Under the pieces are notes generated by a model that did not search any database, was not told the origin of the DNA, and worked only from the letters and a program-made list of their open reading frames with translations. 64,000 nucleotides of DNA from Harriotta raleighana (Eukaryota): positions 1,188,000 to 1,251,999 of the forward strand of contig JBNZDD010013686.1 in assembly GCA_050575255.1 (NCBI GenBank), in the 5' to 3' direction. The position numbers were made by a program, and so were the translations under genes. Below, one piece after another: positions 54,922 to 58,102 of this stretch; position 1 is the stretch's first letter; each line of letters opens with the position of its first letter.

Positions 54922-55757
54922 TTTGCGTAATAAAACGTCATATTTTTCAGACAATGTTACTGAACTTATTAAAGTTTATTAAATCTTATTAAGATTACTA
55001 CAATATCTGGAATGAGAGTCATTGTTCCACTACTAGTTAATAAGCATGAACTCTTTCTCTTTCTCTAGACTATAACTGGAAGATCCTGTGAATGTGTGGT
55101 TGATCCCCTTTGGACAACAATACCACAATGGCAACTGCTTTATAAATATTCACATGTATTTAAATAGTTACCTGCCATTTATTATTCAAAGGTATAGGAA
55201 ACAAGTTTACAGAACTGCATGCAACACATGCTTGTTATTGAACTGACATAGAACGGCATATTTATTCTGTGCACATAATCCATCCCAACAAAACTACTGA
55301 CACCTAATCTATGGTCAGACGACTCCCTGAAATGCCTGCCCGTAAGCATTATGGAGTGTTAGGAGTACAATGAATCCTAAACTTTCTATAAGTGCCTGCG
55401 AAATGAAGAATTACAGGTTCTCACAATGATCAAAGTCAAAAAAAAGAGGCGCACCCGTGAACATTCTTATTCCTGCAACCTCTTCATCAACCACATGACA
55501 AGAGAGGGTAAAATGCTGACTCCACCCAAATACAGGGACAATGCTGCTTTGCCCTGCAGAAATGTCCCCACGATAAATGTTGTTCAGCGCAACAATTATC
55601 TTTTTCATTATTAGGCATATCACACAATATTTGTGTACATCGAGAAGGGAGTTGAATAAAATACTTTCACGCTTCCTCTTTGGCAAAGACAGAACAAGGT
55701 TGGCAATGCATTGAAAACACATTTTCTGTGACGCTATGCCGTTATTGTGCATGCAGT

Positions 55758-56022
55758 GGAGCCCTGTAGCTCAGTGGTTAGGTCACTTGCTTTACAAGCA
55801 AAAGACTTGGGTTCATTTCCAGGCAAGTTAGGGAAGGTTCCTTACTCCACACTCCTCATAATAATCTCTCAAAAAAACAATAATAATTTGGTTATTTCAA
55901 TCCATGACTGTTTGTAGGACACTGCTGTGCGCAATTCACTTTACAGTATAATCTGTGAAGTGCTTTGAGACATCTTGATGACCTGAAAAGCACCATATCA
56001 AATGCAAAGATTATTATTATTA
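55758..56022 (+). mobile_element. tRNA-derived SINE, internally deleted
   Basis: GGAGCCCTGTAGCTCAGTGGTTAG...GGTTCATTTCC head, (ATT)n tail. Confidence 0.85.
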
Positions 56023-56351
56023 TGCTATCACTTGAATCTCAGGTGCATATTGCTCTTATTAATAATCATCTTTGCATTTAATATACCTCCTTTCACATCA
56101 TGTGGTGTGGGCTCAAAGTGCTTTCATTCAGCTACCATACATGGAAAACACAGAAAATACACCAAAAATACATGTGATTGTTGAGAGAAAGGCCTCTCCA
56201 TTGCCCTAAGATAACTGCACCTCGTAGGTGTAAGTTTAATTGGCAACCTCATGGTTGCAGCTACCTTGGTGAAGCTCTGTTGTACCCTATCATTATCTGC
56301 CAGCAGATTCTCCAGAATTTAATGCTGACACACTGTATGTTATAAGTAGCT

Positions 56352-56587
56352 AACAAAACACAAAATACTACAGATGCTGGGTGTCTGAAAACAACACAGA
56401 AGTTGCTGGGGAAACTCAGCAGGTCAGGCAGCATCCATGGAGAAAGGAAAGTGAGTCAACGTTTTGGGTCCACGACCCTTCGTCAGAACGCTTCACGTCA
56501 TGGACCCGAAACGTTGACTCACTTTCCTTTCTCCATGGATGCTGCCTGACTTGCTGAGTTTCTCCAGCACTTCTGTGTTTTTTTTGT
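56352..56587. mobile_element. Non-autonomous Penelope-like fold-back element (inverted terminal-repeat pair) with hammerhead-like core
   Basis: Inverted arms 56393-56476 and 56497-56579 (4 mismatches plus 1 indel). Flanked by a 14-bp direct repeat TGTTATAAGTAGCT / TGTTGTAAGTAGCT (56338-56351, 56588-56601). Penelope assignment is inferred from structure and the hammerhead motif. Confidence 0.75.
56455..56489 (-). ncRNA. Minimal type I hammerhead ribozyme-like motif, probably inactive (G12->A)
   Basis: Minus strand reads GUU CUGACGA A GGGUC GUG GACCC AAAAC GUU GAC: CUGANGA box, 5-bp stem II, GAAA box mutated to AAAA (the sister arm keeps GAAAC), palindromic ACGU stem III, stem I GUU/GAC. Confidence 0.55.
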
Positions 56588-57279
56588 TGTTGTAAGTAGC
56601 TTTCCTATTAAATAGTCTTTGTCATCTGGTGTAAAGTATCCCACTCAAGAACCTTTTCTTGCTATTGTGCAGCTCATATTAAAATCTATTTCAAATCTGC
56701 ATGAGGTTTGTCACACAAGATGCATATCAATAACATTGCACTTTTGTTATATTTATTAATAGTTTTCGTATACAGTACCCTGTTCTCATATATATATGAA
56801 GGTTGTAAAATATAGATGCAGCATGCACAAATAATGGAGTCTCTATTCAGAAGTGGTCTGTTACATGTATTGGAACCAGATGCGACTTTTCTTTAATATT
56901 TAACTGTTTTCTGTGAACCTTGTGCCTCTTGGCAGACTCTAGCTCAGCAATTGTGCAGCATCACAGAGGGACACATTATATTCTGGCCAAGCTAAGCAGA
57001 AACGCATCCTGTTTTTCTAAATACATTTCGCTCAGGTGCACAATAAAATAAATATTGACTATGCTTTTGTCGCTATAATTAAAAAGCTACCCAGCCTCTT
57101 ACAACATGACCTGGAGTGTGCACGAGTGGTAACAGCTTGTGCTTGTGGAATTGTAATTCACTTAATTCTGAAACTCTCATGGTCAATTGTGCAGCTCTAT
57201 AATCCTCACCTTCACCTATCTGAGAATTATAGAATAATAGATGAAAGGCAAAATAATACAAATACTGGAACTCTTGCTT

Positions 57280-57440
57280 TTAATCCATGACTGTTTGTTG
57301 GACACTGCTGCACGCAATTGGCTGCCACGTTTTGCCCACACAAATATACAGTCAATTCACTTTACGGTATATTCAGCAAAGCGCTTTGAGACGTCTAGAA
57401 GACGTGAAAAGTGCTATATCAAACGCAAGGATTATTATTC
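57280..57440 (+). mobile_element. 5'-truncated SINE
   Basis: Body and tail match the full-length copies; stem-loop intact. Confidence 0.85.
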
Positions 57441-57857
57441 TTATCATTATCTGCAATATGGTTCTCGTAAGGCGAGTACAATACATTATGTGCCATTGTC
57501 CTGCCTCATTCCAGGGGGTAAAGTGCCCAAGAAAAATAATTAGTTGTGTTTGCAACACAATCAATGCCCTGTATACTCCTCTGTAAAGCTGTTTCTGAAT
57601 TGGTTTAAACTTGTAGATGCTTGAGTGACTTTGATACAGGAGTGCCAATCATTCAAGCAAATCGCCCAAGGGCGAAAAAGCAAATGGTCCACCTTAGCAG
57701 GGCACTCCACCATTCAGTGCACTTTAAAATGACTTGTTGCCCTGATGATTAATACTGACACAATTGAATCAATTATGCCAAAAGCAACCCCGTGAGTGAA
57801 AAAAAAGGTGTGTGCTGATTAGTAAAATGACAAGAAATATATATGACCTTTCTTAGC

Positions 57858-58102
57858 ATCATGGAATCATGGAATTATACAGCACAAAAAGAGGCCACTC
57901 AGCCAACTGTGTCTGTGCTGGCTCTTTGAATAGAGCTGTGCAAATCAATCCCACTCCCCACTTCTCTTCCCCGCAAACTTGTTCTCCCCAAATCATTATC
58001 TACTTCTCTCTTAAAAGTTGTTATTCAATCAGCTTCCACCACGCTTTCAGACAATGCATTCCAGATCTGAATAACTTGCTGCATGAAAAAAATTCTCCTC
58101 AT
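57858..58102 (-). mobile_element. CR1 LINE 3' end
   Basis: (CATGGAAT)2 terminal repeat then TACAGCACAAAAAGAGGCCACTCAGCC. Confidence 0.75.

Follow-up and report, generated by a model that had tools for sequence, protein, structure and literature searches.

An insert of 236 nt (56352-56587) lies between 14-nt direct repeats with one mismatch in the window, by which we mean the whole stretch of 64,000 nt from Harriotta raleighana that was analyzed. Its inverted arms align as 56404-56476 with 56497-56569 (73 nt, 95% identity) and as 56388-56403 with 56569-56584 (16 nt, 94%). Read as RNA, the insert folds into one long hairpin of -166 kcal/mol (z = -21), a stability reached by none of 200 shuffled sequences. 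The initial annotation had described a fold-back insert of this length with inverted arms of about 84 bp and a 14-bp target duplication, and repeat and fold analysis confirmed these as real, except that the left arm is 138 nt long and includes a 36-nt unpaired extension (56352-56387). The parts of the insert are collected in Table 1, with element positions numbered from the C of the CUGA box (+1). The arms are copies of an end repeat (pLTR); the tail of the long arm matches the descriptions in PMC8557442 and PMC11167929, and the long-arm hammerhead motif follows the layout in PMC4209133.

Table 1. Parts of the insert and its target-site duplication, in window coordinates
Feature	Position	Strand	Remarks
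Target-site duplication, left copy	56338..56351	+	14 bp; 93% repeat identity; family mode 14-15 bp
Long arm, an inverted pLTR copy (element -2 to +135)	56352..56489	-	138 nt; 96% to six-copy majority reference
One-sided tail, unpaired	56352..56387	-	36 nt; spans the two family 3' end points (~+99, ~+135)
Long-arm minimal type I hammerhead	56454..56489	-	G12→A at 56465; predicted cut 56458/56457
Filler at arm junction	56490..56496	.	7 nt; found in this copy alone
Short arm, a direct pLTR copy (+11 to +99)	56497..56585	+	94% over 89 nt
Target-site duplication, right copy	56588..56601	+	14 bp; 1 mismatch

Around the insert, an abundant SINE-like repeat is present at 55765-56022 and 57270-57440, with 13 core matches in the window; its portion at 55765-55825 gave a weak tRNA match (E = 0.052). 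A CCCH zinc-finger coding exon (PF00642), which we take to be MBNL-like, lies on the minus strand at 21489-21662. The left-arm motif had been placed on the MBNL-sense strand, and it is indeed on the minus strand, but the exon is ~35 kb from the insert, which may or may not sit inside the same transcript. A second pLTR stub is found at 17562-17651 (+); it is more decayed, carries an internal deletion, and also starts at -2.

The hammerhead that the initial annotation had pieced together from both arms is present in unbroken form elsewhere in the genome, where the 32-nt motif has 537 exact matches versus none for a reversed control. In a set of 131 arms (87 loci), the commonest letter agrees with the hammerhead at each core position, with losses mostly at CpG, and the core is intact in 37 of the 69 arms that span it. 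With its core boxes kept in the majority sequence, the family motif bears out the earlier assignment to the minimal type I hammerheads of Penelope kind. It shares with the minimal hammerheads of metazoan Penelope-like elements (PLEs; Cervera and De la Peña, PMC4209133) the CUGAnGA and GAAA boxes, an extra base after A9, G10.1-C11.1, a palindromic 15.2/16.2, the lack of a loop 3, and a short stem I. Stem I was correctly given as GUU/GAC (3 bp) for the insert copy, though the family can form 4 bp (AGUU/GACU), and stem II has 5 bp here versus 7-8 bp in the Schistosoma motif (PMC4209133). Cartilaginous fishes are not named in the portion of PMC4209133 considered here.

Unlike the ribozymes of PMC4209133, the copy in the insert is broken on both arms, neither of which holds an intact core. 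The two are crippled differently, as the initial annotation had noted: the left arm, on the minus strand, carries G12→A, a CpG-type change that recurs in 13 of the 111 arms sampled; the right arm begins at +11, so that it lacks +1 to +10 and hence the first core box (CUGAnGA), while retaining GAAACGUU and one half of stem II. Cleavage is not predicted for either arm, and the copy is likely unable to cleave because of the substitution on the left, the missing CUGA box on the right, and the pairing of the arms with each other. An Rfam scan of 55000-58000 returned no hammerhead match at E values up to 10, and a fixed-length core pattern matched twice in the window against 1.36 matches expected by chance. 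Roughly five stem-II variants restore a pair, by eye no more than neighboring C→T changes (100 of 152 variants, nearly all decayed copies, one family). Minimum-energy folds of monomer and dimer did not form the active core, which says little for such motifs; the Schistosoma motif is reported not to cleave when monomeric and to cleave at a low level when dimeric (PMC4209133).

Some copies with an intact motif run upstream, across pyrimidine-rich sequence, into a region coding for GIY-YIG and RT. A search of the same genome with the RT of one such copy (locus L061) gave 161 matches among 150 scored of 622 candidates, and of 19 further distinct RT loci, 14 were collinear with the insert arm at 80-97% identity and 5 were not. 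Copies adjoining such ORFs had been proposed as something to look for, and the finding supports the earlier view of a retroelement mobilized by a Penelope enzyme, the linked ORF encoding RT and GIY-YIG rather than a transposase. By eye, a six-copy majority reading of the ORF contains the motifs DKG and LRYIDD, a C-x4-C-x2-C linker, and GIY-YIG with CCHH; its likely ATG is near +163, ~160 nt downstream of CUGA and beyond the tail. The nearest named proteins, from Chiloscyllium and Mobula, are 62-66% identical and carry RVT_1 (PF00078), with PF01541 in some homologues; these matches point to a cartilaginous fish as the likely host. An intact ORF was not found, all translated copies being broken, and Pfam scans of the genome's own broken ORFs gave no match at curated thresholds (GIY-YIG reached E = 0.012 in one scan and was absent from another). 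One apparent open frame of 2284 aa (G000:C13480, L082/L083) was rejected as an assembly gap, a run of N.

In 13 of the 30 loci that include the ORF N-terminus (three of them being one triplicated locus), a hammerhead and tail lie directly upstream, which is the partial-tandem pLTR layout. The arms are therefore the element's pLTR, and both of its 3' end points fall within the tandem RNA. At locus L061, a direct copy of ~1.9 kb is preceded by an inverted copy of ~1.7 kb that starts with the same tail, and 13-bp flanking repeats were identified by eye; the inverted layout of the insert is thus seen there, and also in L084, L085, L089, and L090, with arms of up to ~1.7 kb. With these partial tandems, an inverted truncated copy, and a one-sided tail, the element is an endonuclease-bearing (EN+) PLE. 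Described EN+ PLEs (PMC8557442; Pen2a_Av, PMC3846280) likewise have partial tandems, an inverted 5'-truncated copy, a target-site duplication, and RT followed by a C-terminal GIY-YIG, and their one-sided tail of 30-40 bp compares with 36 nt on one arm here. A CX2-5CxxC linker between RT and endonuclease, a zinc-finger-like motif matched in our element, marks Neptune and Nematis (PMC8557442). Judged from these motifs, the clade is likely Neptune: the linker is shared with Nematis, and Neptune is preferred because it is widespread in vertebrates (bioRxiv 10.64898/2026.07.22.740005). Besides its longer duplications (see below), the family departs from published EN+ PLEs in that the whole insert here consists of just two pLTR ends and most copies have one 5' stop just upstream of the hammerhead. 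We conclude that the insert is very probably one short, decayed insertion, made of two back-to-back pLTR copies of an RT and GIY-YIG Penelope-like retrotransposon that is likely of Neptune type, and that it is likely inert. It is an ordinary decayed stub of a described PLE kind.

The anatomy of such stubs was then compared across the genome. A search with the insert gave 3,833 candidates (40 scored). A second motif, 34 nt long and located 3' of the first, had 1,033 matches versus none for its reversed control. The 87 loci (131 arms) were drawn from the first 100 of the 1,033 matches after merging overlapping rows; this sample leaves out the last five rows and the neighbors of C13463:252851 that lie beyond the fetched stretches. 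The 87 loci comprise 42 long-plus-short inverted pairs, 2 short-plus-short pairs, and 43 without an adjacent inverted arm. The 3' ends are bimodal, with 67 arms ending near +99 and 64 near +135, 36 nt apart, and the two end points lie behind similar sequence motifs. At the other side, 52 of the 131 arms end between -6 and +1 and 21 continue upstream of -6. At base level, 61 of 82 arms (those still carrying -2, unselected for upstream sequence) stop at -2 to -7, that is, 2-7 nt upstream of CUGA, and 21 continue. Copy ends do not fall at the predicted cut (+29/+30).

All 39 inverted pairs in which both arms cover the 3' anchor have distinct junctions; the mirror was thus likely rebuilt at each insertion rather than copied from a master fold-back. 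The two arms of a pair are, in turn, likely from one source, since they have a subfamily allele at +65 in common in 34 of 38 pairs versus 55% expected at random. The divergence between paired arms is 9.8%, roughly double their divergence of 5.7% from the majority, which fits arms that shared a source and then decayed independently. The 5' boundary is reached by the long arm only in 14 of the 39 pairs, by the short arm only in 10, by both in 7, and by neither in 8.

Duplications were found at 37 of 44 inverted units and 14 of 42 non-inverted units, versus 3 of 300 mismatched controls; a single locus was excluded because it lay at a contig edge. They are 8-18 bp long with a mode of 14-15 bp, rather than the fixed 2, 8, or 9 bp that the initial annotation had named as the mark of a DNA transposon, and they compare with 8-10 bp reported for Adineta PLEs. 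Around 26 of the duplications, the flanking sequence is weakly symmetric, with an A-rich left side and a right side resembling GTT. Six of 51 sites (L141, L166, L195, L205, L207, and L209) overlap one 22-nt stretch of the SINE-like repeat, against ~0.8% expected (p ~4e-6, from local flank density and a small sample); five of these duplications start at about the same base, and their inner structures differ.

Sequencing reads from elsewhere were also considered. In sequencing runs of three other, related organisms aligned to a tandem copy, loose ends occur at -4 to -2 and fold-back joints at the same boundary, and in one run the contig depth rises ~140-fold across the 5' boundary. Poly(A) reads from a relative cover both strands about equally, 84-86% of them run into unrelated sequence, and there is no pile-up of ends; this pattern is consistent with read-through from scattered copies, and a library of this kind cannot show circles.

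These footprints in the DNA suggest how the mirror is made. The element protein would nick the two target strands ~14 nt apart, and both nicks would prime reverse transcription at +135 and +99, internal starts on an uncut element RNA; the two cDNAs would run toward the RNA 5' end and then be joined end to end, with trimming or filler. On balance, we favor this two-nick, two-start priming with end-to-end joining as the probable origin of the mirror. It agrees with in vitro work on the anole Penelope protein, which nicks both strands and extends them, initiates at a pair of internal sites delimiting the tail, uses uncut RNA, and is predicted to dimerize (PMC11167929). Two counts go against it: only 14 of the 42 non-inverted copies have a duplication, and in 8 of the 39 pairs neither arm is at the boundary. 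On this reading, the hammerhead is simply carried with the element, to which it belongs.

The simplest reading of the shared stop at -2 to -4 is that the RNA has its 5' end there, and the stop site would fit a Pol II initiator consensus. The Penelope of D. virilis is known to have an internal promoter (PMC2377424). We regard as evenly poised the more specific proposal of an RNA start at about -2 to -4, from which it would follow that priming within the 5' pLTR yields run-off copies of ~100 and ~138 nt; such run-off copies could explain why stubs outnumber long copies. More tentatively, the stubs may record a two-ended insertion in full: a Penelope protein dimer, a fixed stagger of 14-15 nt, weakly palindromic sites, a preference for one stretch of the SINE-like repeat, twin starts, an uncut RNA beginning with the first base of stem I, and occasional telomerase-like re-copying. 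If so, the hammerhead would mark the start of the transcript and not the excision of a transposing RNA.

The same parent element could also have produced the mirror if a single cDNA, or an antisense template, folded back and primed itself, which we consider possible though rather unlikely. Self-priming on an antisense template is the published model for inverted pLTRs (Arkhipova 2013, PMC3846280), the agreement of the arms in subfamily alleles is what copying back of one strand would give, and the internal palindromes of the hammerhead could serve a self-priming snap-back. The anatomy of the pairs is harder to reconcile with this, as the boundary is reached now by the long arm, now by the short one, many junctions contain fillers or re-copied bits rather than clean hairpin loops, and the outer ends of the arms sit at two fixed start sites, flush with the duplication. 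Extension of both strands by the anole protein in vitro (PMC11167929) likewise argues for priming from two nicks over self-priming.

The initial annotation had favored a separate, non-autonomous, retrozyme-like family, a short self-cleaved and perhaps circular RNA mobilized in trans by a Penelope partner. Some observations are in keeping with this: short copies dominate, with few arms passing upstream of -6, and all core positions are kept in the family majority. It has also been reported that pLTRs by themselves can drive integration in trans (PMC3846280) and that animal retrozymes are derivatives of PLE pLTRs (bioRxiv 10.64898/2026.07.22.740005). Animal non-LTR retrozymes (PMC7229834; bioRxiv 10.64898/2026.07.22.740005) resemble our stubs in being short and non-coding, with a type I hammerhead related to PLE pLTRs. 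However, the arms proved to be the pLTR of an autonomous element, with the ORF continuous on both sides, all 39 centers differ, and the hammerheads in the copies are uncut, with the predicted cleavage site flanked by sequence on either side, which sets them apart from tandem retrozyme monomers. Retrozymes are head-to-tail tandems that give circular RNAs, mostly with canonical hammerheads (PMC7229834), as in those tested, whereas the stubs are not cut-to-cut monomers; their arms are single or inverted in the 87 loci, at most two of which (L188 and L209) have nearby same-strand repeats. As an account of the fold-back as a unit, a retrozyme-like family is therefore largely refuted and very unlikely, and the fold-back is more likely to be a dead by-product left by insertion than a ribozyme element in its own right. 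An origin as a MITE, or as another derivative of a DNA transposon with terminal inverted repeats, can be dismissed: the insert is short, high-copy, palindromic, and flanked by a duplication, but the arms are unequal, the variable centers are truncated like cDNA ends, the duplications vary in length around their mode, about half of the loci lack an inverted arm, and the continuity with an RT and GIY-YIG ORF refutes it.

Among described systems, the reading as two joined cDNAs has a close counterpart in Poseidon_Ac of the green anole (PMC11167929), with two RT start sites bounding the tail, nicking of both strands, and an uncut RNA template. The ORF of Poseidon_Ac starts inside the hammerhead; here, the likely ATG lies well downstream of it, and the element is Neptune-type by motif. 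Opposite-strand pairs 100-700 bp apart and many solo truncated copies had already been noted for minimal hammerheads (PMC4209133). We found no literature on twin priming in Penelope elements or on shark Penelope hammerheads, nor on the shared 5' stop, the 14-15 bp stagger, or the SINE hotspot, though supplements (PMC4209133 S2-S5, PMC11167929) or Repbase may hold the latter three or the family itself; PMC6155905 contributed nothing specific.

The single insert matters little, as one among thousands of decayed stubs. The family, by contrast, provides numbers on how PLEs form tandem and inverted structures, a question named in PMC8557442, and its regular anatomy hints at the insertion mode of such elements. 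The fixed stagger, twin starts, shared 5' stop, and same-source arms are all testable with the in vitro system already described. In annotation, hairpins of this kind are best labeled PLE pLTR stubs and not MITEs, miRNA precursors, or new ribozyme elements.

Several smaller observations concern the 5' stop. At the junctions of L002, L009, L017, L046, and L168, short pieces of the template's 5'-terminal bases appear re-copied after the stop at -2, which recalls slippage at the boundary of a template. An "AG" follows the stop in 13 of 24 arms versus 8.5% by chance, but a longer repeat is present in only 4 of the 24. Telomerase-like re-copying at the stop is a lead only, as several arms are equally well fitted by one added A followed by the other arm. 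A splice acceptor as the cause of the stop (the site resembles CCCCAG|TT) is disfavored, with no shared upstream exon in 65 junctions and no donor identified by eye; in D. virilis, a Penelope intron does end at helix I (PMC4209133). Splice-acceptor-like sites were observed at L120:1270-1281 and L120:1430-1446, at the 5' edge of stem I and just before the likely ATG, respectively. Finally, an apparent second cluster of 5' ends near -203 (5 arms) is probably an alignment edge where subfamilies differ.
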